DNA of 33,340 bases, taken from positions 1 through 33,340 of the IMG/VR virus record IMGVR_UViG_3300035562_000038; one strand, 5' to 3'. The notes under the pieces were generated by a model, which had not been told where the DNA came from, ran no database searches, and saw only the letters and a program-made list of their open reading frames with translations. Both the position numbers and the translations under genes were made by a program. Below, one piece after another: positions 2,068 to 32,083 of the stretch. How positions within the stretch are numbered: position 1 is the stretch's first letter; every line of letters starts with the position of its first letter. The stretch is from a virus (taxonomy: Duplodnaviria > Caudoviricetes).

Positions 2068-4986
2068 TCACTCGAAATCGTTGTAACTGCTGTTCACCTT
2101 GGCGCGCGCCTGCCGTTCTCTCGCATCCAACTGCCTGGCGACTTCCCGCGCGATATCCAACGCGCTCTGTCCTGGCTGCGGATTGATGGTTATCGGCGCG
2201 TGTATCTCGACAATCGGCGCATTGGTACGCTGATATGATGCGCTGCCGGCTGAGCGGTATTGGTTCCCGGCCAGGCTGTGCGGGTGTAGCGGAGCGTCCG
2301 CTGCTGTTGCGCCATTCATGAACAGGGTGGCGATTGCTGCCATTGCTGCGGTGTTTCGGCGGCTGGTTACGTTTGCCGGCCCGCTGACGATTTCCGGCCC
2401 ATACTCTCCGACAATGCCGAATTTACCCAGCGGGATACGGCCGCCGTTGTCATGCTCTCCGGTGTAGCGATAGCGTATTGCATCAGCTGAATTTCCTGTC
2501 GGCCCTGGCGTCATCATGACACCGGCGCGGCGGGCCGCATCGGCAACGGCAGGGTTTTCCTGCGTCAGTTTGCGCGTTTCTGCCGACCGTACTTTGATTT
2601 CGTCCAGCTTATCCAGTACCCATTTGATTGAGTCCGTCAGCAGTTTCAGTGGGGTTAGCGCCATCTCAATGCCTGCCGCCAGAAATTCGCCGAAGGTCTT
2701 CCCGGCCGATGCCGCGCTGTCCAAATTGTCTTTTGTCGATTTCACCGGCGTCAGCAAATCTGTGAACCAGCCCCACAACGCTTTAACCTTGTCGCCTATC
2801 CAGTTGAATACTGGCATCAATGGTGCAAAAGCGTCTTTGATCGGTGCGGCGGCGTTTTTGAATCCTTCGACAACACCGCCGAGAAACGCCTTGATAGGCT
2901 TCCAGTATTTGTAAATCAGCACACCAGCGCCGACGATCGCGGCCGCAATCAGTCCCAGCGGGCTGAGTAGAATGCCGAACATACTCGCCAAGCCGCCGAG
3001 GGCGAAGCGGAGGAATCTCAGCGGTGAGGTTGCCAGCCAGGTAAATACGCGCCCAACTCCTTTCATCCCCTTGGCGGCTGTCTGTAGTGGTGATGATGCA
3101 AATGTCATTACTGCGCGGCTGGCGTTCCCTAACCCTTGCTTGGAGAATGTCAGCGCGCTTTTCCCTGCTTCAAGTAATGAGCGGCTGAAGCTCCCGACTT
3201 GCTTTTTAGTGATAGGCGTCGTACTGGCGAATTTCAGCATGCTGAGTGAGAGGTTAGGCAGCAGGCGAATACCTAACATGCGGGTGCTGAACCGTAGCAG
3301 GGCAAACGGGCCGAGCAGCCCGACGACGGCGATCGCCAGCGTACCGAAAACGGTCGTTGCAATAGCGGCTGCTGCCCCTATCTTAACAATGGCGGCGCTT
3401 ATGTTGGGGTGCGCTTTTAAAAACTCAGCGACGCCGTGCAAAACGTTGCTGATACCTTTGGCCGTTTTCCGTAACCAAGCGTCGTTTTTTTCAAACAGTT
3501 CAACGCTGATATTTTCCAGGGCGGCATGTAGCATTGTCATGTCGCCTTTCATGTTATCCAGCATAGTGCCGGATACGCGCGCGGCCTCGCCATCATACTC
3601 GCCCGGCGCACCGCGCATTTTTTGCAGCTTGCCGTCTGATACCGCACGCATCAACTCACCGAATCCTGTGACGGCATACATGCCAGCAATATCTTTGAAA
3701 ATCTTACCGCGATCGACGTTCCCCATTTTGGACGTCTTCTTGTCGATATCTTTCAAAATATCGACCAGGTCGCGCATATTGCCGTCTTTGTCTTTGGTTT
3801 CGACGCCTAGTTTTCTGACGGTGGGGCTGTTGCCAATTCTGCTGAGAATAGCGCGCATTGCTGTACCAGCTTGGCTACCTTGAATGCCCGCGTTTCCCAT
3901 GATCGCCGTGGCGGCTGAAACGGTTTCCAGGCTTTGACCATATTCGCGGCCGACGCCGGCGGAATATTTCAATGACTCGCCCAGCATCGGAATATCAACG
4001 TTGTTCCGTGTGAACAGCGCGGTAAGCACGTCCGCCACTCTGTCCATTTTTTCCGCCGGGATCCCCATCGCGGTTTGAATGTTTGACGCAATATCGGCTG
4101 TCGTGCCCAGGTCAATGTCGCCGGCCGATGCCAGATTCAGCATCCCCGGCATGGCTTTTAATACCTGCTGCGGTGAATAACCCGTCCTCCCGAGGAAGTA
4201 TTGCCCCTCGGCAACCTGGAGATCGGTAAATTTTGACGATAGCGGCAGGGTTCTTGCCTGATGACGCATGGCCATCATTGCTGGATCTGACTTGGACGGG
4301 ATGCGCGTTACAGCCTGTGTTTTGCTCATCATCGCGTCAAAGTCATAACCGACGTGCAAGGCATTTGCCAGCCCGCGACCCATCGCGCGCCCGGTGGCCA
4401 TCGAGGTATAACCCACCCCGGCAGTCATGACTTTTCGCTGATTACTCTCGTCGAATTGATGGCGTGCAGCATTCAGCCGTTTTTGCTGCTGGGCCTGCTG
4501 CTCAAGTCTTCGCTGCTGTGCTGCAAGTGCGCCGGTTGTCCCGCTGATATTGGCGCGCAGCGATCGCTGGGCCTCACCAAGTCGGTTAGTCGCCATGCCG
4601 CTGTTTTGAAGCGCGGTGCGCTGGTTTTGCAGTGACAGCCGGAGATCTGAATATTTTTGCTGAAGGCGGGCCGCTTCCTCCCTGGCCTTCTGAAATTGGC
4701 GCGCCTGCCTGGCCGTCGGGGTTTCCGTTGATTTCATGGCGATAGACAGGCTGCGCGCTCTATCGCGGGCAGTGCTTAGCGCCTGCGCGGCTGCGGCTAC
4801 CTGGGCTTTTGTCTTACGGAAACCGTCAATTTTCCCAGCCTGATTATCCAGCTGTTTTAATTGGTCTTTGGTGGCTTTAACCGAAGCGGCCAGCGCTTTA
4901 TTGCTGGCCTGCATGGATTTAAACGGGCGGGTGACTTTATCGACCGCGCTCAGTAAAACCTGCAATCGGAGGTTTTTATCACTCAT
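2068..4986 (-). CDS. T: Tail tape measure protein
   Basis: MSDKNLRLQVLLSAVDKVTRP start; TP901-type core; hydrophobic segment; C-terminal GKFGIVGEYGPEIVSGPA. Confidence 0.93.
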   Translation of the reverse strand: MSDKNLRLQVLLSAVDKVTRPFKSMQASNKALAASVKATKDQLKQLDNQAGKIDGFRKTKAQVAAAAQALSTARDRARSLSIAMKSTETPTARQARQFQKAREEAARLQQKYSDLRLSLQNQRTALQNSGMATNRLGEAQRSLRANISGTTGALAAQQRRLEQQAQQQKRLNAARHQFDESNQRKVMTAGVGYTSMATGRAMGRGLANALHVGYDFDAMMSKTQAVTRIPSKSDPAMMAMRHQARTLPLSSKFTDLQVAEGQYFLGRTGYSPQQVLKAMPGMLNLASAGDIDLGTTADIASNIQTAMGIPAEKMDRVADVLTALFTRNNVDIPMLGESLKYSAGVGREYGQSLETVSAATAIMGNAGIQGSQAGTAMRAILSRIGNSPTVRKLGVETKDKDGNMRDLVDILKDIDKKTSKMGNVDRGKIFKDIAGMYAVTGFGELMRAVSDGKLQKMRGAPGEYDGEAARVSGTMLDNMKGDMTMLHAALENISVELFEKNDAWLRKTAKGISNVLHGVAEFLKAHPNISAAIVKIGAAAAIATTVFGTLAIAVVGLLGPFALLRFSTRMLGIRLLPNLSLSMLKFASTTPITKKQVGSFSRSLLEAGKSALTFSKQGLGNASRAVMTFASSPLQTAAKGMKGVGRVFTWLATSPLRFLRFALGGLASMFGILLSPLGLIAAAIVGAGVLIYKYWKPIKAFLGGVVEGFKNAAAPIKDAFAPLMPVFNWIGDKVKALWGWFTDLLTPVKSTKDNLDSAASAGKTFGEFLAAGIEMALTPLKLLTDSIKWVLDKLDEIKVRSAETRKLTQENPAVADAARRAGVMMTPGPTGNSADAIRYRYTGEHDNGGRIPLGKFGIVGEYGPEIVSGPANVTSRRNTAAMAAIATLFMNGATAADAPLHPHSLAGNQYRSAGSASYQRTNAPIVEIHAPITINPQPGQSALDIAREVARQLDARERQARAKVNSSYNDFE

Positions 4987-6036: not shown

Positions 6037-7212
6037 TTAACTGTTCACGTTCTGAGTGAAGTTCATCAGATACTTGTCGGTGATGCGCTGGCGCAGCAGC
6101 AGGTTTTCGAGCGGCGGCACAGGCGTGTAATCGTAATCCAGCACCAGCTTGCCGGCTTTCAGGGTGTCCTTGTCATTGGCCGCTTCATCAATCCAGCAAT
6201 CCCCGTCAACGATGTAACCGCCGGTTTTCAGCTCGCGGAATTTGGCTTTGATGCCCTCGATAATGTCCGTAGCAAGAGAGGGGTACAGCGGCTGATCTGC
6301 GGCCCACATCTGCGCCTCGGCCATCGTGTCGGCCAGCACTTGCGCGGTGCGGGTGTAATTTTCAAACTGGAACAGCGGATCGTCGGAACAGGTACGCGAC
6401 CCCCAGAAGCGGAATCCGTCTTTTCGGATCAGCGTGGTGACGTCGTTTTTGTTCAGCAGGTTGGCATCGGTGGCCGTGTCCTGCAAATCCCAATAGACAT
6501 CTGCGCTGATGCCGGTCACGCCGTTAACACCGACGTTGGACAGGGTTTTGTGCCAGCCGACGTTCTGATCCAGCTTGGCGCGCAGCCCGAGCGCGCGGGC
6601 GGTTGCGAAAGCTGTTGCGGATGCGTTGGTCGTGGTATCCCAGCTCAGGAAATCCGGCCAAATCAACATAGCTTCGCGCTGGCTGAAGTTTTTGCGGTAG
6701 TCGAGCGCCTCGGATACCGTCTTGCAGCCATAGGCGCTGAGGTAGGCGAAGGCGCGGAGGCTTTGCGCCACGGCCAGTAATTCGGAAGCAACCGCCTCGT
6801 TATCGTGGCCCGGCACACCCAGAATGCGGGGTTTAACGCCAAGCTGGCTTTGTGCGGCCAGCAGGGCTTTCATGCCGGTTTTCTTGCCCTCGGTGGTCAC
6901 GCCGCCGATGATATTGGTTGTCGTCTCGGCTTCGGTTTCGCCCTGGTCGACACGCACCACAACAGTGACGGGCTTGGCCTGAGCGGCGATGGCATCCAGC
7001 GAGCGGGCTAGGGTGCCGGTTTCGCCGGCCTTGCCACTGGCGGCCAGGACGTCGGTAATTAACACGGGGGTGTTTAACGGGAATGCTTTTGCGTCGGCGT
7101 CGTCACCGGTACAGACCATACCGACGATGGCGGTGCTGACAGTGGTGATGGTGCGGGTGCCTTCGTTGATTTCCTGCACGCGCACGCCGTGGTGATAATC
7201 GTCTTGAGCCAT
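6037..7212 (-). CDS. FI: Tail sheath protein
   Basis: [20 protein letters not shown]...[11 protein letters not shown]; AGGAG RBS before ATG 7212. Confidence 0.96.
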
Positions 7213-20455: not shown

Positions 20456-21493
20456 ATGAGCAAGCGCAACCGGGGCCGCAAGCACGCCCAGCCAACGACA
20501 CAAAAACAGACTGGCGCGCAGCACGTCGAGGCGTTTACCTTCGGCGACCCGATCCCAATGCTGGATCGCCGCGAAATACTGGATTATCTGGAGTGCTGCG
20601 TCGTCGATCGCTGGTATGAACCGCCTATCTCGTTCAACGGCCTGGCGAAGACGTTCCGCGCGGCGGTTCATCACAGTTCACCGATCACGATGAAGCGTAA
20701 CATCTTAGTGAGCATGTTCAAGCCCCACCGGCTGCTGTCAAAGCAGGATTTTAGCCGCTATGCGCAGGATTTCATGGTGTTCGGCAACAGTTTTATGGAG
20801 TCGCGTTACAACCGCCTCGGCGGGATAATGAAGCTGGTTCCCAGCCTGGCGAAATATACCCGCCGTGGTGTCAATACTGACTCTTATTGGTTCGTGCAAT
20901 CGTGGGCGGAGCCGCATCAGTTTGAAGATGGCACCATTTTCCACCTGCTTGACCCGGACATTAATCAGGAGATCTACGGCGTTCCCGAGTATCTTTCCTC
21001 GCTTAACTCCATCTGGCTGAACGAGGCCGCAACGCTGTTTCGCCGGAAATACTACCTCAACGGCAGCCATGCCGGCTTTATCCTGTACATGAACGATGCC
21101 GCGCACAAACAGGAGGATATCGACAACCTGCGCAAAGCGCTGAAGGAATCGAAAGGGCCGGGCAATTTCCGTAATCTGTTCATGTATGCGCCGGGCGGTA
21201 AGCCGGACGGCTTGCAGCTGATCCCGCTGGCCGAGGTGGCGGCGAAAGATGAGTTTTTGAACATCAAGAACGTGACGCGCGACGATCAGCTGGCGTCCCA
21301 GCGCACGCCGCCGCAGTTGATGGGGATTTTGCCGAATAACACCGGCGGATTCGGGGATGTGGAAAAGGCCGCGCGGGTATTTGCGATTAATGAGCTGGCC
21401 CCGTTGCAGGAGCGCCTTTGCGAGCTAAACGACTGGGTAGGGGAGGAGGTGATCAGCTTCAACCCGTATGAACTGCTCAAGAATGACCAATAA
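20456..21493 (+). CDS. Q: Portal protein Q (PBSX family)
   Basis: AFTFGDP...WYEPP...NQEIYGVPEY...YYLNGSHAGFI...GGFGDVEKA. Confidence 0.97.
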   Translation: MSKRNRGRKHAQPTTQKQTGAQHVEAFTFGDPIPMLDRREILDYLECCVVDRWYEPPISFNGLAKTFRAAVHHSSPITMKRNILVSMFKPHRLLSKQDFSRYAQDFMVFGNSFMESRYNRLGGIMKLVPSLAKYTRRGVNTDSYWFVQSWAEPHQFEDGTIFHLLDPDINQEIYGVPEYLSSLNSIWLNEAATLFRRKYYLNGSHAGFILYMNDAAHKQEDIDNLRKALKESKGPGNFRNLFMYAPGGKPDGLQLIPLAEVAAKDEFLNIKNVTRDDQLASQRTPPQLMGILPNNTGGFGDVEKAARVFAINELAPLQERLCELNDWVGEEVISFNPYELLKNDQ

Positions 21494-21536
21494 GTTGCTA
21501 GCTTATTAAGTTAGTGGCTTGATGTTTGCAATGTGA

Positions 21537-21556
21537 ACCGCCGAAAGGCGGTTTTT
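21537..21556 (+). terminator. Terminator of the PQ operon
   Basis: AACCGCC-GAAA-GGCGGTT-TTT. Confidence 0.85.
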
Positions 21557-21894
21557 GCATTCTTATGCGATGCTATTCATATCGCATTCTTTATCTGTGC
21601 GCTGTTGTGACATGTCACTGGCATTTTTTTTCATTAAAATGTCGCGTCACATAGCTGTTGAAAATTAAAATGTGACGTGGCAGGATGACGTCAAGTCGCC
21701 CGGCATGTTCAATGTCGGCACTCAACCCGCAAGCGCGGTTTTTGCAGAGATCGAAAGTGATTCTTTGCCAAAAAAACGCCGCATATCCTAAGTGCAACAA
21801 TCCGCATAGTTCATTGCATACCTAATCACCCCTCAAAACCGCACCAAACAAGGCTTTAGCCCCTTTTTTCTACTGCATAAAAAGTGAATTGTTA

Positions 21895-21990
21895 AGCATG
21901 CAGCGTGGGGGCGGGGGGGACGGCACGGAACAGGGGATCGATGGGGATCGTTTTTCCTGCCTATCCCCCGCAAACCCCGCACCGCATTCA
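21895..21990. other. Candidate cos/packaging region
   Basis: Non-coding gap after Q where P2 cos lies; G-rich GGGGGCGGGGGGGACGGCAC and TTTTCCTGCCT..GCAAACC loosely resemble P2 cos-region sequence, but there is no exact 19-nt P2 cos match. Confidence 0.3.
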
Positions 21991-22199
21991 CCTGCGCATC
22001 GCTGCAAGGCGATCAGATTTGATGTGCGATCATTGGTGCAAAGAAAAAGCGCCTCGCTGTGTGGCGTATAGGCGCTTTGGTGGGGGCGGTAATATGCGGG
22101 TTTCTATGTTGCTGGGCTGGTGTTATTCATTTCTGTGAATATTCATTCATTTTGATTGCGTCATTTCCCCGGTGCTGCTATTCTCGACTGGCGAAGGTT

Positions 22200-22544
22200 C
22201 TACAGCGTTGCCAGCATCAGCCTTTTATAGCCGGTTGTCTGCCAGCATTGCGTGTCACCTTGCATGCAGCACCCGCCCGGATCGCCCGGCAACGTGTCGC
22301 CGCATTTCCCACAGCTACTTTTACGCAGGTCGGCCAGCTGTTTCTGCAACAGCTTGTTGTCTTGTCGTATGAGGCCGATCAGGTATTCCGTCACCTCGTA
22401 AGGTTCCCTCGCGATCCGGCGCTGCTGGCAACCTTCCAGGATCATCGCCATTTCCTGGCTATCGACGCGCAGAGTGATCGTGGTGATGCCGTTGGCCTTG
22501 TCGCGCTGGCGCTGGCTGCGTTTACGTTCTGCTGGTGTGGTCAT
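22200..22544 (-). CDS. Small phage protein: basic N-terminus, RHH-like middle, Cys-rich C-terminus
   Basis: MTTPAERKRSQRQRD...ITLRVD...YLIGLIRQD...CGKCGDTLP...GCCMQGDTQCW; ATG lies 1 nt after the MTase stop. Confidence 0.8.
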   Translation of the reverse strand: MTTPAERKRSQRQRDKANGITTITLRVDSQEMAMILEGCQQRRIAREPYEVTEYLIGLIRQDNKLLQKQLADLRKSSCGKCGDTLPGDPGGCCMQGDTQCWQTTGYKRLMLATL

Positions 22545-22545
22545 G

Positions 22546-23247
22546 CTACACGTCCCCATTTTGATGAGTAGAAAGAAGTGCTGCCAGTATGGCAAGGCGT
22601 TCCGCTGCCGGTAGATCGCTATAATTTCTGGCCCAACGTTCGGCTTTTCTCTTGATGCGTTGTCGATCGATATAGTTCGCGCCGGCAAACGCCGCGCTGT
22701 ATGCAGCATTCTGGGCATAATTCATCCATAACTTTTCAGTGCGTGGCCCTCCGCGCGTCATCACCTGAAATTCCATGCTACGCCAGTCGCCGAGCAACTC
22801 GTCGTAGAGTGCGGACGGATAGCCGGAGATCATGACGTTGGCGGGCACGCTGCGTAACACGTCGATCAGGCGGCGGTGATCGTCGACGGTATACTCGTGA
22901 CGATACCGCGCGCGGCTGGTGCGGGTTTCTGGAAGATAAGGCGGGTCGACGTAGATCAGCGTGCGACCGTATTTTTCAAAAGGAACGGCGCGCAACAGCT
23001 TAACCGCGTCGCCGATCTCAATCATAAGGCGATCGGCCTGTTCATCCAGATAATCCGGGTTTCCCTGGCAAAATGCCTCAACGGTTTCCGGATCGATATC
23101 CCACCCGATCGTGCGGGCAGCCGGCGGCTTACGCAGCATAATGGCACCGCCGCCGAGGTGTGTTTCGATGTAGGTGTCGTGTGGTGGCATCTGGCTGATT
23201 ATTGCCTGGTATGCGCCGCTTGCGGCCTTGCTTCCTAAATATCCCAT
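22546..23247 (-). CDS. DNA N6-adenine methyltransferase (D12/Dam-like fold), short form
   Basis: GYLGSK (motif X), YIETHLGGG (I), GWDID (II), YVDPPY (IV), MISGY; alternative start at 23262. Confidence 0.88.
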   Translation of the reverse strand: MGYLGSKAASGAYQAIISQMPPHDTYIETHLGGGAIMLRKPPAARTIGWDIDPETVEAFCQGNPDYLDEQADRLMIEIGDAVKLLRAVPFEKYGRTLIYVDPPYLPETRTSRARYRHEYTVDDHRRLIDVLRSVPANVMISGYPSALYDELLGDWRSMEFQVMTRGGPRTEKLWMNYAQNAAYSAAFAGANYIDRQRIKRKAERWARNYSDLPAAERLAILAALLSTHQNGDV

Positions 23248-23259
23248 TAGTCGGTACCC

Positions 23260-23460
23260 CATAGTTGATAATGACGGTGCTGCAGAACAGATATTTCTGT
23301 CTATGCGGTACCAGCAACATCAGCTGGCACAGTTGGAACCGTCTATATTTGCCGGCATGGCCAGAACAGGTATTTCTGTCTATGCGGTACCGGCACCAGG
23401 CGGCACAGATGCCACCGTCTATATTTTTCTGTATGGCCAGAACAGATATTCCTGTCTGTG
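23260..23460. repeat. Array of six 20-bp bipartite quasi-palindromes, organised as ~2.3 tandem units of 76-79 bp
   Basis: MAYAGNT-N6-GWCKRTR at 23260, 23286, 23328, 23365, 23404, 23441; higher-order units start at 23283, 23362, 23438. Confidence 0.9.
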
Positions 23461-23473
23461 CTCGATGTAATTT

Positions 23474-25939
23474 TTATGCCCCAGCGATGGTATTTACTCG
23501 GCCTCGTGCCAAAGCTTGCCAGCGGGATACCAAGTCTGTGGCCTTATGTTTTGCTAGTGATTTACGCCACTGCGGATCCATACCAACAACGATCAGTTCT
23601 CCGGTTACCAGGTTCGCTCGATAAACGGTATCCAGCACAGTGACCTCTTTCCCCAATGCCAGTTGATTAGCTTGATGCTCGCTCACTGTGATTTTTCTGA
23701 TCTTCGCCCAGCGCTGCACCTGCTCAGCGACGCCTGCGACCAATGGCGTAACCTTTTCTTCCATCTGCCTGAGTGACTGCGCGGCGCGCAGGTAACTTTC
23801 GGCCCGCTGGCGATCCGGTTCGGTGCATTCGCCCGCCGTAAGGGCATAAGCCAGCGCCTCAAACTCTTCGGCAGGGGACTTTTTCCGATCCGGTTTGTGG
23901 TTTCGAAGACTTTCGGCAAGCTTTTTGCGCCTGCTGGCCGATTTTTGGCCGATTTCAAGCTGTTCCGGCCCTATATCCAGTGGCGGATCATCGTGCGAAT
24001 CTGGTTGCTTTTTGACCGTGGTACAGTTATTGACACGAGTCCAAGGGGGCGCAGACGCGCCCTGAAGGTCAAGGTCAACCCCATGATCGGCGTCGGCCGA
24101 TGGTTGCGGCTTCATTCTGACAATGCGGAATTTTCGAAGGCGGGTTTCAACCGGCGGGATGTCTGCGGTTGGCATCACCAACCCTTTAATCACCGAAATG
24201 TATTCGCCGTAATCATTCGGTTCGTCTTTGATTTGATACCAGGTGCGGACGCGCAGGTCTTTGCGAAGGACAAACGGCCCGCCCTGCAATAAGGTGTATT
24301 CGCGCCAGTCAGCACCATCGGCGGCACGATGCAGCTCACCAAATAGCGGATTGATCTGGTCTGCCAGTTGTTGATTACGCATGCGGCGCAACTCGCGCCA
24401 AACAGATACCGGTGCACCGCCGAGAAACTGGAATTGACGGATTCCCCAGCATGACGCCCAGGCGGTAGCATGCCTGGCGGTTTCCTTTAATGGACGTCCG
24501 CTTTCGTCGTCTGTCAGCCCGTCCAGTGCATAGCCGTCGACGTTTTTGGATATGTACTTGACGATATAACCCGTTGCACTGCCGACGCTTTCATCGATCG
24601 GCTTCATTTCAAATCGCGGCTGTTTACCGTGGCTGCCGGCAAGTTCTTCGGCATCTTCGCGCGTCGCGTAATCCCGCATGATCTCGCGCAGCGGCTCAAC
24701 GTTTTCTGCTGTGGTGAATAGCAGGCCGTGCCAGTGCGGCGTTCCATCATGATGTGATTCGGCAACGCGCAGGCCAAACGCCGGGATATCCCTTCGCTTG
24801 AGTTCCGCCCGGATTTGTTGCCATACGCGGTTTAGATAACGCTGCGTCTTGCGAGGGTTTGCTCCATTCCACTTGCTGTTACGGTGGCCGCTATAGCTGA
24901 ATGCGTGATAACTGGAAGGGGCTGTTAAGGTAAAAAAGCTGCCGGTAAACCCTTCCTGTGTCGCGACCTTTTCGAAACCGCCGATGCGGGTCATCAACTC
25001 GTTGCGGCGCTTTTCCGGGTTTGAAATACTCTTATCGATTTGCTCTATGAGCGATATTCTTTCGCCAGTGTCCTGATCTTCCAGTTCCAGCTTGCTCATG
25101 ATCGCGCGGCTGCGCTTGCGGCGCTGATCCCATTCCTCAGCATGATGCTTGCTGCAATAAGGGGAAATACCCCGACGAACGTCACCAAAGGCAATGTGTA
25201 AATGTTCGCGCCACCGGATGGCATATTTACGCAGGTTGCGCTGCCAATAGCGCGCATCGCGCATCTTTTGGACGGCTACCACTGCCTCATCTACCCATAT
25301 AGTCTTTTTGGCAGATAGGGGCGGATTAGCCTGGAACATTGCGGTAAGTGCGGAGGCCTCCCGATAGAGCCGCATAGCCAGTTCCCGATCGCCTAACGCT
25401 TCCAGTGTTTCATTTACTTCACTCAACATCGCAGTCATGTAAATCGCAATATCCTGCGCCAACAGCTCAATATCTTCGTCGGTGAAGTCAGGAAGCCGAT
25501 TGAAACGCTCAATCAGCCCGCGCAGGTGTGAAAAGTTATGATAAAGCGCGTCAAGGTGCACAAATGGCGGGAGATCTTCGCCGTCGCCTTTAATAGCGTA
25601 TTCACCGGTGACGCGGGTGATAATCGGCAGATCACGGCGAGCAATATCGCGCAGTTTCAGGCGGGCAATGTGTCGGCCTTTAGTACTGTGAAAGTGGTTG
25701 ATTCGGTCACTCAGTCGCCGACGAATAAAGCGCGGTAGTGGTGCCAGGGTGCGCTGTACCCATGCGCCAAACTCCTGCTCTTGAGCCAGCTCAACGAGAT
25801 CAACAGAAGGAGTCTTGTCCACATGGATAGCCGCTTTGGGCTTATTCCATGCATGGGGGTAGTCAGAAACGTCCGCGCCGCTGCCAGGGTATGGCAACGG
25901 CGGTGATGGTTCATAGCGGCCGCGAATGGGTTTACTCAC
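23474..25939 (-). CDS. A: Rolling-circle replication initiator A (HUH endonuclease)
   Basis: FFTLTAPS, ESHHDGTPHWHG, GYIVKYISKNVDG, IRQFQFLG; GTG 25939 overlaps the upstream stop (ORF track starts at 25984). Confidence 0.95.
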   Translation of the reverse strand: MSKPIRGRYEPSPPLPYPGSGADVSDYPHAWNKPKAAIHVDKTPSVDLVELAQEQEFGAWVQRTLAPLPRFIRRRLSDRINHFHSTKGRHIARLKLRDIARRDLPIITRVTGEYAIKGDGEDLPPFVHLDALYHNFSHLRGLIERFNRLPDFTDEDIELLAQDIAIYMTAMLSEVNETLEALGDRELAMRLYREASALTAMFQANPPLSAKKTIWVDEAVVAVQKMRDARYWQRNLRKYAIRWREHLHIAFGDVRRGISPYCSKHHAEEWDQRRKRSRAIMSKLELEDQDTGERISLIEQIDKSISNPEKRRNELMTRIGGFEKVATQEGFTGSFFTLTAPSSYHAFSYSGHRNSKWNGANPRKTQRYLNRVWQQIRAELKRRDIPAFGLRVAESHHDGTPHWHGLLFTTAENVEPLREIMRDYATREDAEELAGSHGKQPRFEMKPIDESVGSATGYIVKYISKNVDGYALDGLTDDESGRPLKETARHATAWASCWGIRQFQFLGGAPVSVWRELRRMRNQQLADQINPLFGELHRAADGADWREYTLLQGGPFVLRKDLRVRTWYQIKDEPNDYGEYISVIKGLVMPTADIPPVETRLRKFRIVRMKPQPSADADHGVDLDLQGASAPPWTRVNNCTTVKKQPDSHDDPPLDIGPEQLEIGQKSASRRKKLAESLRNHKPDRKKSPAEEFEALAYALTAGECTEPDRQRAESYLRAAQSLRQMEEKVTPLVAGVAEQVQRWAKIRKITVSEHQANQLALGKEVTVLDTVYRANLVTGELIVVGMDPQWRKSLAKHKATDLVSRWQALARGRVNTIAGA
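24023..24052 (-). other. Replication origin (A nick site) inside gene A
   Basis: Minus strand GCGCCCCCTTG|GACTCGTGTCAATAACTGT resembles P2 ori GCGCCTCG|GAGTCCTGTCAATAACTGT. Confidence 0.8.
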
Positions 25940-26322
25940 GCCAACGGCCACTCGTCTAAGTAAAACCACGGCGAGTTTTGCCACTTACGCGACAAAATAT
26001 TGACCGATACCAGTGTTAAACCGCCAGTGGCGTAGTTGCGTTTAAATACGCACTCAACTGACTGGTCTGGGCCGCTGGCAGGGTCATAACTGACTATCCT
26101 GTCCATAAGAGGCTGCTTTCTTCTGGCATGAAGAAGTCTCAGTGTCGCACCTGCGGAAAGCTTGAACGCTGCGCGTATCAGCTCCTGTTGGCGGGCTGCG
26201 TAGGTTTTCCCATAGCGGCGACCTCCGCAGGTGAAAACAGGCTGTACATGATAATTTTGGATGTGATCGTGGCGGCCCAAAATAGCAGCAATAACAAGAG
26301 CGGCATTAGTTTTGCGCATCAT
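25936..26322 (-). CDS. Hypothetical protein with terminase-like short motifs
   Basis: Overlaps both neighbours by 4 nt; contains GGRRYGKT, SYDPASGPDQS and FYLDEW. Confidence 0.7.
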   Translation of the reverse strand: MMRKTNAALVIAAILGRHDHIQNYHVQPVFTCGGRRYGKTYAARQQELIRAAFKLSAGATLRLLHARRKQPLMDRIVSYDPASGPDQSVECVFKRNYATGGLTLVSVNILSRKWQNSPWFYLDEWPLA

Positions 26323-27368
26323 TCACATACCCCCGCATAAACGCTACTGCAACCGGTGTGATCGTTCATGGCGGCGATCAAATCGAACTGCTGCCCGCCC
26401 CTGGTGGTTAGGGCCCAATCGCGATAGGTTTCGATGCCATGCGATTCAACCGTGATGCACTCGATTCGGCTTTCCGCCTTTTTCGGATCTTGCGTAGCAG
26501 GAAAGAAGACGCTGTTCTGGCGACGAGAACAAGCGGCGACCAGCTTTTCCCATCGAGCAACGCGGGCTATCTCTTCCGGCCAACGGGTAAAAATCTCGGC
26601 CAGCTCGGATTTGCATGCGTGAATGCATGGCATGCAGCCGACGCGGCTACAGCCTTGTGTGTACAACGGATTCGGCTTGATGCCGTGATGTTTGGCAATC
26701 GCAAAGACGTCGGCATGTTTCCAATCGAGAATTGGCCGATAAATATTTAGGCCTGGCGTTTTATCGGCATCGCTTTCCCACGCGGGCAATCCCGCGCGTT
26801 GCGGCGATTCCTCCGCCCTAACCCCTTGCCAACTGATCACCTCGTCATACTCGTCTAGCAAAGGCGCAACCAGCTGATCGCGGATCGGGATGTGCTTTAA
26901 CTCGAATGTGCAGAAGCGGACCATTGTTGACGGAAAACGACCCTTCCACATGCAGAGATCAAGGAATGGCACGCCGGTTGGATGAAGGGTTTCAAGTGCC
27001 AGGGCAACGGTCTTTTTTGCCTCTTGCTCAGTCAGCCCACACTCAGTAACAAGTGATACGGGCCAGCGCTCGGCAATAAACCGGCGCTTACCTTCAATAC
27101 GCGCGGTAAAGTCGGCTTTAACGCGGCGAATCGGCCCTAACTTGGATTCGAGATAATCCAGGTATTTCATTGTTAACGGGTGTTCGTGGCCGGTGTCAGC
27201 AAATGCGGCAATAATCTTGACGCCGGCAGCAAGTGCAAGCAGCCATTGCGCCAGGCTGTCTTTGCCGCCGGAAATACTGATCACGTTTATGGCGTCGGTA
27301 GCGAAGACGCGATCGTCGATCAGTGCCGTTCCGGCAGGATATGAGATAGCACGCGAAGGTATCAGCAT
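26319..27368 (-). CDS. PAPS reductase (CysH/DndC-like) family protein
   Basis: SISGGKDS PP-loop, DTGHEH, RFCTFELK, GVRAEES, RVGCMPC. Confidence 0.88.
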   Translation of the reverse strand: MLIPSRAISYPAGTALIDDRVFATDAINVISISGGKDSLAQWLLALAAGVKIIAAFADTGHEHPLTMKYLDYLESKLGPIRRVKADFTARIEGKRRFIAERWPVSLVTECGLTEQEAKKTVALALETLHPTGVPFLDLCMWKGRFPSTMVRFCTFELKHIPIRDQLVAPLLDEYDEVISWQGVRAEESPQRAGLPAWESDADKTPGLNIYRPILDWKHADVFAIAKHHGIKPNPLYTQGCSRVGCMPCIHACKSELAEIFTRWPEEIARVARWEKLVAACSRRQNSVFFPATQDPKKAESRIECITVESHGIETYRDWALTTRGGQQFDLIAAMNDHTGCSSVYAGVCE

Positions 27369-27370
27369 TT

Positions 27371-27697
27371 CTACTTATCCTCCGGCGCAGCCGCTAGCAT
27401 GGCGGCGTAGATGTTGCCGAAGTTCACGCAGAAACTTTCGTCGGCGTTGAACGTGACATCGTCGCAGTTCATGGCTGCGGCGATCATGTCTTCGGTTGGC
27501 TCTACCGGCACCAACTTGTAACCGCCACCTCCAGTTTGAGCGAGTATTGCAGCGCGGCAGGCATCCCATATTGTTTTAGGGTCAGCGCCACATTCAACAA
27601 ACCCTTCGCACTCTGTGTAAATCACGTCAAAGACAGATTTCGGCACGGTTTTCGGTATTGCTGGGGTTGGCTTCGGTTGCGTGGCTTTGGTACTCAT
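27371..27697 (-). CDS. Eaa/Ead-like phage early protein
   Basis: WDACRAAIL...GYKLVPVEPTEDMIAA...IYAAMLAAAP modules; ATG 27697 overlaps the dam stop. Confidence 0.7.
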   Translation of the reverse strand: MSTKATQPKPTPAIPKTVPKSVFDVIYTECEGFVECGADPKTIWDACRAAILAQTGGGGYKLVPVEPTEDMIAAAMNCDDVTFNADESFCVNFGNIYAAMLAAAPEDK

Positions 27698-28515
27698 GCG
27701 GATGCCCTCATTGTTGCGATGATCTCGCCAGCGGTTGCGCGGCTGGTAGCTTTGGCGCTGACAGAACGGCGTGCGGTGGCGGTGGTGATGGTGAAATCGG
27801 AATACAGCTCCCGCGCGGCGTCTGTTTCGCTGTTCGAGGCCACGACGTGGCGGCCGCGTTTTGCCGCGATGCGCAGCATACGCGCCAGCTTTCTCTGCTG
27901 TTCGCTGGTAAAGCCGTCGGTGTGGTAGCTGGTGAAATTGGCGGTGGCGCTGGCTGGGATGTAGGGCGGATCGCAATAAATCACGTCGCCGGCCTGTGCC
28001 ATCCTGATCGCTTCCTGGAATGTGCAGCACAGGAAAATCGCCTTTGTGGCCTGCGCCTTCTCAGAGAACGCCCGGATCTCGTCTTCGGGGAAATAGGGGG
28101 CTTTTCGATGACCGAACGGCACATTAAACTCGCCGCGCAGGTTGTAGCGGCAAACGCCGTTGAATCCGTGGCGGTTCAGGTAAAGGAATTGCGCGGCGCG
28201 GTACAGGAAATTACTGTCGCAGCGCAGATTGAAATCGGCGCGTACAGCGTAATATCCGGCCTCGCTGGCGTGCTCCCTGAACAGGTTGCGCGCTTCGCGG
28301 ATCAGGACGTCCGGCAGGTTTTTGGCGACGTTGTGGAAGTTGATCAGATCGCTGTTGATATCGCACAGCAGATAGCTTTCATAGTCGGTGTTGAGAAACA
28401 CCGCGCCACTGCCGACGAACGGTTCAACCAGCCGCTTTCCGGCTGGCAGGTGCTGGCGCAGCGTGTCTATTATGCTGGCCTTGCTGCCTAGCCATTTCAT
28501 GGCTGGGCGGTTCAT
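27694..28515 (-). CDS. dam: DNA adenine methylase Dam
   Basis: KWLGSK, LVEPFVGSGAV, YLNRHGFNGVCRYN, FNVPFG, YCDPPY; the GATC-recognition hairpin motif is retained. Confidence 0.93.
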   Translation of the reverse strand: MNRPAMKWLGSKASIIDTLRQHLPAGKRLVEPFVGSGAVFLNTDYESYLLCDINSDLINFHNVAKNLPDVLIREARNLFREHASEAGYYAVRADFNLRCDSNFLYRAAQFLYLNRHGFNGVCRYNLRGEFNVPFGHRKAPYFPEDEIRAFSEKAQATKAIFLCCTFQEAIRMAQAGDVIYCDPPYIPASATANFTSYHTDGFTSEQQRKLARMLRIAAKRGRHVVASNSETDAARELYSDFTITTATARRSVSAKATSRATAGEIIATMRASA

Positions 28516-31519: not shown

Positions 31520-32083
31520 GTGGAAGATTTATTTTTTGCCTACATCACAGCGAGCAAGAAAGTTTCATCTTATGGCCTGTCTTCACCTGAACGGGTTGGC
31601 GACTATGTTCAAGGCATTTGCATGCGTAGCGCCAGCTATAAGACATTTCGATTAGACCGCTTTATCGGCTTTTTCGGCGACATGCAGGAAGCCGAAGAGT
31701 ATGCAGAGAAGGTGCGCCAGTTCCTGCTTGAGTCCCCTGATGCTGAAGAATTGCCTATTTTTGCTGAGCTGCGGGAGCAGAAAAAATATAAACGGTATGA
31801 ATCCCCCGCAATGCTCAGGCCGCTTGACTTCAGCGGGCCGATGGAAATCTGTTTTACCGGATTCAAGAAGGATGACAAGGTGCGGCTTTCCGCTGTTGCC
31901 TCAGAACATGGAATGATCGTTAGAAGCGACGTCACCGTAAACCTTCACTTCCTTTGCGGTGGCTACAACGCCGGCCCGAAAAAATTAGAGGTAGCTCGTA
32001 AAAAGGGCACTCTCATTTTAAGGGAGGACGAATTTTTATCCCTGGTTGCAACTGGTGAGTTGCCTGATGACTATGACAGGTAA
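31520..32083 (+). CDS. WYL-like + BRCT domain protein
   Basis: N-terminal YVQGIC...YKTFRLDRF (WYL-like); C-terminal EICFTGF...VTVNLHFLCGGYNAGPKKLEVAR (ligase/RFC-type BRCT); AAGGAG RBS, GTG start. Confidence 0.8.
   Translation: MEDLFFAYITASKKVSSYGLSSPERVGDYVQGICMRSASYKTFRLDRFIGFFGDMQEAEEYAEKVRQFLLESPDAEELPIFAELREQKKYKRYESPAMLRPLDFSGPMEICFTGFKKDDKVRLSAVASEHGMIVRSDVTVNLHFLCGGYNAGPKKLEVARKKGTLILREDEFLSLVATGELPDDYDR

Follow-up and report, generated by a model that had tools for sequence, protein, structure and literature searches.

A Dam-fold protein without target-recognition domain is associated with palindromes that place the methylated base of restriction-modification sites at a fixed distance

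The gene at positions 22546-23262 (minus strand) of the window, by which we mean the whole stretch of viral DNA analysed (33,340 nucleotides), encodes a protein with the fold of the Dam methyltransferases but without their helical target-recognition domain (TRD), and it is preceded by an array of short palindromes. The base that known methylases modify in the restriction-modification sites beside these palindromes is found at a constant position, the fifth base outward (+5), both here and in relatives on phages and plasmids. That the gene, the palindromes and the +5 register form one system is in our view almost certain. Our preferred reading, to which we give a probability of roughly 0.45, is that the protein is a putative methylation sensor which sits on the palindromes and reads the methylation that the host has placed at +5.

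The protein and its family

The window is a P2-like prophage, in which the open reading frame (ORF) lies between the portal gene and the P2-type replication gene A (23474..25984, minus strand). The initial annotation had placed a gene at 22546-23262; the gene proved to be real, whereas its start at 23262 is probably wrong. Translation more likely begins at the ATG at 23247, giving a protein of 233 amino acids with the N-terminus MGYLGSK (22546..23247, minus strand). The ATG at 23262 falls within the right arm of IR6, the last palindrome, and in a near-identical locus (L015) its equivalent reaches a stop after four codons. A promoter scan of positions 21450-23700 yielded no minus-strand consensus promoter, and no sigma-70 consensus was found in the array.

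The same annotation had described a Dam fold with intact motifs, a missing TRD and a basic helical tail, and these three claims are borne out. Motif I (HLGGG, residues 30-34), the motif II aspartate (D50) and DPPY (residues 101-104) are all in place, and the AlphaFold model (pLDDT 80.7) consists of a Rossmann methyltransferase core (residues 1-180) followed by two tail helices (192-210 and 214-229). The motif II aspartate and DPPY are 51 amino acids apart, versus 130 in the canonical Dam of the same prophage (27694..28515, minus strand), which has a full TRD and was used for comparison only. Superposition of the model gave DpnM as top structural match (Z 16.3, 163 of 258 residues aligned), followed by T4Dam (Z 14.6, 150 of 241) and EcoDam (Z 14.5, 154 of 243); in the TRD slot the model has just two short helices, and motifs III and IV are not separated by a helical TRD. 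The Rossmann fold with motif I ahead of the motif IV DPPY is that of the alpha class, whereas Elg et al. (2025, PMC11997246) in their main text call the motif order of the homolog Upf31 beta. Against the Dam family the protein scores 33 bits, with a cut-off of 114.85.

According to the alignment and the AlphaFold model, the basic two-helix tail is conserved (residues 189-229; 22561..22683, minus strand), and F187, Y192 and W205 in the tail region align with Y180, F185 and W198 of Upf31. A homodimer prediction (median 0.36, with a mark of 0.42) was set aside as evidence; dimerisation through the tail is proposed by analogy with Upf31, for which a model and mutants have been published, and from the dyad of the operator.

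The closest characterised relative is Upf31 of plasmid pBP136, with 47% identity (E 1e-66) over 226 columns, full-length and including the C-terminal domain. A word-indexed search returned 5161 proteins at E ≤0.001 among 7488 candidates, a set which may include ordinary Dam relatives; 695 cluster representatives match at E ≤1e-30, and in 132 of 218 matching plasmid records the match extends over 80% or more of the protein. When 150 distant representatives were taken, the interval from motif II to DPPY was 40-59 amino acids in 67 of the 89 in which it could be measured, and the short interval is, as judged from these sequences, a trait of the family. DPPY is conserved in 99-100% of the 105 representatives that were aligned (of 150; 200-300 amino acids).

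Gene A is the usual upstream neighbour, with a match in 73 of 79 viral loci. Other members stand ahead of an IS66-type transposase, recognised in 14 of the 16 long ORFs that were scanned downstream of the gene in these loci, and further ones occur in a Zot-bearing phage, on MOBF and MOBP plasmids and in a Chloroflexota prophage. In a series of loci (L100-L116, L120, L123, L124, L129-L134, L136 and L141), the gene heads IS66-type elements, the methylase-like gene coming first and the transposase second; these elements have one palindrome between -35 and -10, and individual genome bins contain them five or six times. On a Methylorubrum plasmid (L158:5989-12489), the homolog is followed by a cysteine desulfurase gene, DUF4007, a large ORF and a gene of the PAPS-reductase family, an order that resembles a phosphorothioation operon, although this label is deduced from gene content; no palindrome was found near this homolog.

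Palindromes, +5 register and site avoidance

The initial annotation had also pointed to an upstream array, and this array does belong to the gene. It consists of six imperfect 20-bp palindromes of the form CAYAGWY-N6-RWCTRTG (7-6-7), all given here on the minus strand with their two outward flanks and the +5 base in brackets. IR1 (23441..23460) is flanked by CTCG[A]T and CTGG[C]CA, IR2 (23404..23423) by TTTT[T]CTG, the sole flank without a site, and CCGC[C]TGG, IR3 (23365..23384) by CGGT[A]CC and CTGG[C]CA, IR4 (23328..23347) by TTTG[C]CGGC and CCAG[C]TG, IR5 (23286..23305) by CGGT[A]CC and CTGC[A]G, and IR6 (23260..23279), which directly precedes the probable ribosome-binding site, by CTGC[A]G and GGGT[A]CC. 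Restriction-modification sites are thus present in 11 of the 12 flanks, namely CTGCAG, TGGCCA, GGTACC, CCTGG, GCCGGC, CAGCTG and TCGA. The CTGCAG at 23280..23285, which forms the 6-bp spacer between IR5 and IR6, is the only copy in the 33-kb prophage, and the methylated A of each of its strands is at +5 of one palindrome. A tandem period of 76 nucleotides corresponds to two palindrome units; as a repeat unit of its own it was rejected, being local and reported by Tandem Repeats Finder in 3 of 79 loci. Weak palindrome-like matches at 7110 and 17556 have no in-register site and were treated as chance.

The 79 viral loci together gave 213 palindrome calls, with a shuffled mean of 11 (maximum 20). 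Within 250 nucleotides upstream of the gene, 53 of 115 distinct loci have at least three palindromes, 40 have one or two and 22 have none. The same 7-6-7 unit was located in pBP136 with the IncP-1β consensus (23 strand matches, null expectation 0.17). Ahead of the IS66-type elements and of IncP-1β upf31, single palindromes lie between TTGACA and the -10 box.

Palindromes also occur away from the promoter. In 34 of 81 relatives one is located 41-74 bp downstream of the P2-type rolling-circle origin, and in none upstream of it; the origin motif of the window (24021..24050, minus strand) has no palindrome beside it. In pBP136 a palindrome follows the last oriV iteron at a distance of 10 bp. In five relatives, palindromes with in-register sites are found inside the gene at the slot of the missing TRD, in L144 at 3180-3260 and in L071, L128, L155 and L159 approximately 160-210 nucleotides in. 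The long low-complexity linkers that some relatives carry in this slot contain 25 palindrome-compatible peptide windows in 39 linkers, versus 6.8 in shuffles, which suggests that they may be translated arrays. Phages SEN5 and 3LV2017 have extra palindrome groups near the tail-fibre region or the portal end (L150:15054-15100, L151:10414 and 26230), and these adjoin the borders of variable regions.

In 174 distinct palindromes, the arms vary independently: the pairs at arm position 3 are C-G (45), T-G (36), C-A (36) and T-A (28), without covariation, and at arm position 7 there are 63 C-A mismatches versus 12 T-G pairs, so that C-A mismatches are at least as common as wobble pairs. We therefore take the palindromes to be double-stranded DNA operators and not RNA guides. 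These palindromes would provide specificity in cis, as DNA to which the protein putatively binds.

The register is defined by the base that is modified and not by where the site begins. CTGCAG starts at +1, TGGCCA and TCGA at +2, GGCC at +3, CCWGG at +4 and CCGG at +5, and in each case the modified base falls on +5. Among the distinct flanks of relatives, 175 of 255 hold the motif of a known methylase in such a position that the modified base falls on +5, compared with 47 in column-shuffled flanks (maximum 64), 19 in within-flank shuffles and 52 at the next-best position; 80 flanks do not fit. Of 168 distinct 3' flanks, 94% have A or C at +5, as do 79% of 163 5' flanks, and the flanks on both sides obey one dyad register. 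These flanks are drawn from related elements, so that the counts are not independent; in 14 non-P2 loci (118 flanks), A or C at +5 reaches 81%, with 36-60% at other positions, and in eight plasmid loci 29 of 48 flanks are in register. Palindromes away from the proximal array, found by arm score, have an in-register flank in 77 of 93 cases with a background of 4.2% per flank, in a set that includes some displaced proximal arrays and was scored with a 20-motif list drawn up post hoc. As controls, P2, 186, Fels-2 and PsP3, in which no such gene is annotated, gave four palindrome-like matches, none of them with an in-register flank. Most of the IS66-linked operators are without a site on the 3' side.

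A register of the cut positions was dismissed on the basis of the commonly known cut sites: the cut positions of the panel's restriction enzymes are not in register, whereas the methyl positions are. The modified bases of GGTACC and TCGA are at the positions that we take to be the usual ones. The motif list consisted of commonly known motifs and was partly chosen after the flanks had been viewed, and for this reason the modified positions were checked in S3 Table of Blow 2016 (PMC4752239). In the entries compared, this table agrees for eleven motifs (modified positions in capitals: cTgcAg, cTgaAg, caGCtg, gGCc, tgGCca, rCcgGy, aTcgAt, cTcgAg, gAnTc, aGCt and gCcgGc). It differs for GTAC, with m4C at position 4, and for GGATCC, with m6A at position 3; CCWGG and GCCGGC receive mixed calls, and one of the five CTCGAG calls deviates (PMC4752239).

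The spacers between neighbouring palindromes follow the same rule; like the comparisons with non-P2 loci and with palindromes away from the proximal array, this one is independent of the proximal arrays or of the motif list. Among 68 short spacers (5-13 bp), those of 6 bp are CTGCAG or CTGAAG in 25 of 27 cases, those of 8 bp mostly N-TGGCCA-N (4 of 7), those of 11 bp mostly a centred CCWGG or GANTC (6 of 9) and those of 12 bp mostly a centred CCGG, and spacers of 7 bp do not occur. A or C is at +5 on both strands in 58 of the 68. Spacer lengths are thus quantised so as to keep both strands in register, each strand having its modified base at +5 of one of the two palindromes.

The most common sites of the array are avoided elsewhere. 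Outside the palindromes, the window contains no CTGCAG (10.4 expected) and two TGGCCA (13.3 expected), and the 36 kb of pBP136 contain no CTGCAG (13.7 expected) and one TGGCCA (28.9 expected). Given this avoidance in the remainder of each element, the commonest hexamers of the panel are probably real restriction threats that are without genome-wide protection. Other sites are not clearly avoided in the window (CAGCTG 22 observed and 26.6 expected, GCCGGC 52 and 56.1, TCGA 145 and 123.6, CCWGG 86 and 102.3). Three further sites are wholly avoided in the window (1-33340) yet missing from the panel, GGCGCC (0 versus 22.9 expected), CCGCGG (0 versus 19.0) and CCCGGG (0 versus 6.9).

The panel also differs between hosts. 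In-register GATC was found in none of 231 flanks from mostly enterobacterial P2-like arrays, versus 11 of 118 other flanks, and pBP136 is among the elements that carry it. In-register GANTC was likewise found in none of the 231 enterobacterial flanks versus 4 of the 118 others, these four coming from two loci only, one of them a Caulobacter contig. GATC may be kept out of the enterobacterial panels because a site that is always Dam-methylated would jam a sensor.

Reading or writing of the +5 base

In the reading that we prefer, a putative dimer would sit on each palindrome, anchored by tail and core instead of a TRD, and would flip the +5 base into the catalytic pocket, for which the DPPY pocket is the obvious candidate. 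Only the modified base lies at a constant distance, unlike the centre of the site or the position of the cut, which suggests a base-flipping pocket with a fixed reach. Methylation at +5 would alter the occupancy of the operator, and the output would be the level of the protein itself together with read-through from the replication operon; in relatives it may include access to the replication origin. A panel of common sites would reveal the restriction-modification systems of the host, or a fresh arrival. Such sensing fits the published repressor role of Upf31, the tuning to the host and the exclusion of the always-methylated GATC. Several points count against it. Unprotected sites that are removed elsewhere are kept in the array, which is costly on entry into a new host, a cost that is avoided if the protein methylates the sites itself; the invariant SAM and DPPY motifs suit catalysis equally; and several panel sites are m5C targets, for which discrimination of a C5-methyl group by the DPPY pocket is putative. 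Slow self-methylation of the +5 base may join the same switch, and reading and writing could be combined.

The published properties of Upf31 bear on this choice. Thorsted et al. are said to have associated the IncP-1β repeats with restriction-site clusters already in 1998. The link between the upf31 gene and the repeats is attributed to Thorsted et al. 1998 by Elg et al. (PMC11997246), who in their main text describe the four repeat groups of IncP-1β as unexplained and are silent there on phages, flanking restriction sites and register. They report that Upf31 represses its own promoter, approximately 50-fold in a reporter, and that this requires the tail and the three aromatic residues Y180, F185 and W198; Kor-regulon genes including klcA are raised by Upf31, and E. 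coli K-12 loses about half of its fitness to it, with the plasmid only; growth of K-12 expressing Upf31 without plasmid is not slowed (PMC11997246). GATC is unmethylated in dam- JM110(pBP136Km), and Upf31 induced in the methylase-free strain ER2796 gave no SMRT modification signal; this strain held the expression vector only and hence none of the repeat groups of the plasmid (PMC11997246).

The most serious alternative, which we nevertheless consider rather unlikely, is an anchored methylase: a dimer on the palindrome that methylates any A or C at +5, to m6A or m4C. Only palindrome-adjacent sites would be shielded, and the element would retain them in protected form to act as baits, as decoys or as controlled break points. 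The register, the scarcity of G and T at +5 and the double-register spacers, which would give full methylation, fit equally well, the DPPY and SAM motifs are invariant, and the safe carriage of otherwise avoided sites is accounted for. The published SMRT experiment does not bear on this alternative because the strain was without the palindrome arrays of pBP136 (PMC11997246). What speaks against it is that there is no clear benefit in keeping sites that need protection and that the sole activities published in the text of Elg et al. are repression and effects on a regulon (PMC11997246); the absence of GATC in Dam-positive hosts is also more easily explained by a sensor, although a missing threat from GATC-cutting enzymes explains it too.

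Less probable still is a plain autorepressor, that is, a dead or moonlighting methylase whose sites are kept for another reason, for instance as cloning sites for the capture of cargo, with the register as a by-product. Site-free single operators do exist before IS66 transposases, and arrays border cargo regions, both at the P2 hotspot between gene A and the portal gene and at the IncP-1β accessory region. A by-product of this kind is difficult to reconcile with a register of methyl but not of cut positions, with spacers quantised for both strands and with in-register palindromes inside repA, inside a terminase gene and within the methylase-like gene, all of them places in which an insertion would do harm.

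Specificity through the array RNA, as proposed in the initial annotation, or through single-stranded DNA, with either one guiding the enzyme to panel sites genome-wide, is very improbable. The fixed five-base offset is reminiscent of box C/D guides, and the transcript of the array has a better fold than shuffled sequences (z -3.7). Yet the arms are without covariation and rich in C-A mismatches, both flanks follow the same dyad register, the guides would measure only 4-6 nucleotides, the array has no Rfam match, and CTGCAG and TGGCCA are avoided genome-wide. Although the strain of the published SMRT experiment was without array, pBP136 does carry in-register GATC and GATC remained unmethylated in dam- JM110 with pBP136Km (PMC11997246).

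A similarly low probability is given to a relaxed-specificity m6A methylase with anti-restriction function, another suggestion of the initial annotation, for which the absent TRD, the intact catalytic motifs and the adjacent replication genes would speak. It does not agree with the persistent avoidance of the commonest array sites, nor with the lack of a signal from induced Upf31 in ER2796 and the unslowed growth of K-12 without plasmid, both observed with a homolog that is only 47% identical (PMC11997246). Target recognition by the product of the neighbouring ORF at 22200..22544 (minus strand; phrog_536), likewise suggested earlier, would suit an ORF that is adjacent, on the same strand and regulator-like, but can practically be dismissed, because relatives of this ORF occur in 7 of 79 loci and are adjacent in 5, as expected for variable cargo and not for a fixed partner. 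The frame of this ORF is open for 58 codons further upstream, through the methylase tail (22200-22718), and the family match covers the 114-aa part only.

Relation to known systems and further observations

The fold, the motif order and DPPY are shared with Dam, T4Dam and DpnM (Pfam PF02086); the protein differs from them by the lack of a helical TRD and by its extra tail, and its homolog Upf31 leaves GATC unmethylated. M.EcoGII and Hia5 are non-specific phage adenine methylases, which are similarly phage-borne and without ordinary sequence specificity; however, broad methylation is not seen with Upf31, and the protein of the prophage is tied to operators. Control that is gated by methylation is known from the transposase promoters of IS10 and Tn5, from Mu mom via OxyR and from SeqA at oriC. 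As in these systems, the state of host-methylase sites would gate expression or replication. There, a GATC site inside the operator is read by an unrelated protein, whereas in the prophage the would-be reader has a methylase fold and the panel is diverse and lies outside the operator at a fixed distance.

The likeness to Upf31 comprises 47% identity, the tail with its three aromatic residues, the upstream 7-6-7 palindromes and the flank rule in pBP136; the difference is the P2-like setting, in which the prophage protein is without a KorB partner. The Upf31 family and the IncP-1β repeats are thus already known, while the architecture seems to be new and its function is deduced. A BLASTN search of a plasmid database by Elg et al. 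found Upf31 homologs almost only on IncP-1β plasmids (PMC11997246). In the openly accessible literature that was searched, with the main text of Elg et al., neither the register nor the spacer rule was found described, nor the mechanism or any members in phages and IS66-type elements.

Through the +5 rule, the protein and the repeats become connected to the restriction sites; the IncP-1β repeats have been unexplained since 1998. Upf31 was ruled a non-methylase by a test without its palindrome arrays, as far as the main text reports (PMC11997246). It is conceivable, at a confidence somewhat short of even, that the family represents a widespread device of mobile elements, in which a TRD-less methylase fold on palindromic handles addresses a base at fixed distance and a host-tuned panel reads the host methylome. 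The device would gate replication and anti-restriction genes and perhaps pre-write host marks, and its panel would be swappable. Such a device would account for the IncP-1β repeats; with it, the burden that pBP136 imposes on E. coli K-12 is expected to vary with Dam or Dcm. If the protein is a sensor, phages and plasmids would sense host restriction-modification directly, with consequences for host range and plasmid cost; if it methylates, it would be a natural distance-measuring and sequence-indifferent methylase for A and C. Either one would be a usable tool.

A few observations concern the neighbourhood. The ORF at 31520-32083, ahead of the integrase gene, has a weak BRCT match below the cut-off. 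Between Dam and gene A, a gene with a PAPS-reductase domain (26319-27368) may represent a third DNA-modification function of the prophage. In two relatives, tandem repeats of an unrelated, AT-rich kind, 47 and 130 nucleotides in length, are located approximately 940-1110 (L042) and 930-1250 (L072) nucleotides downstream of the gene start.
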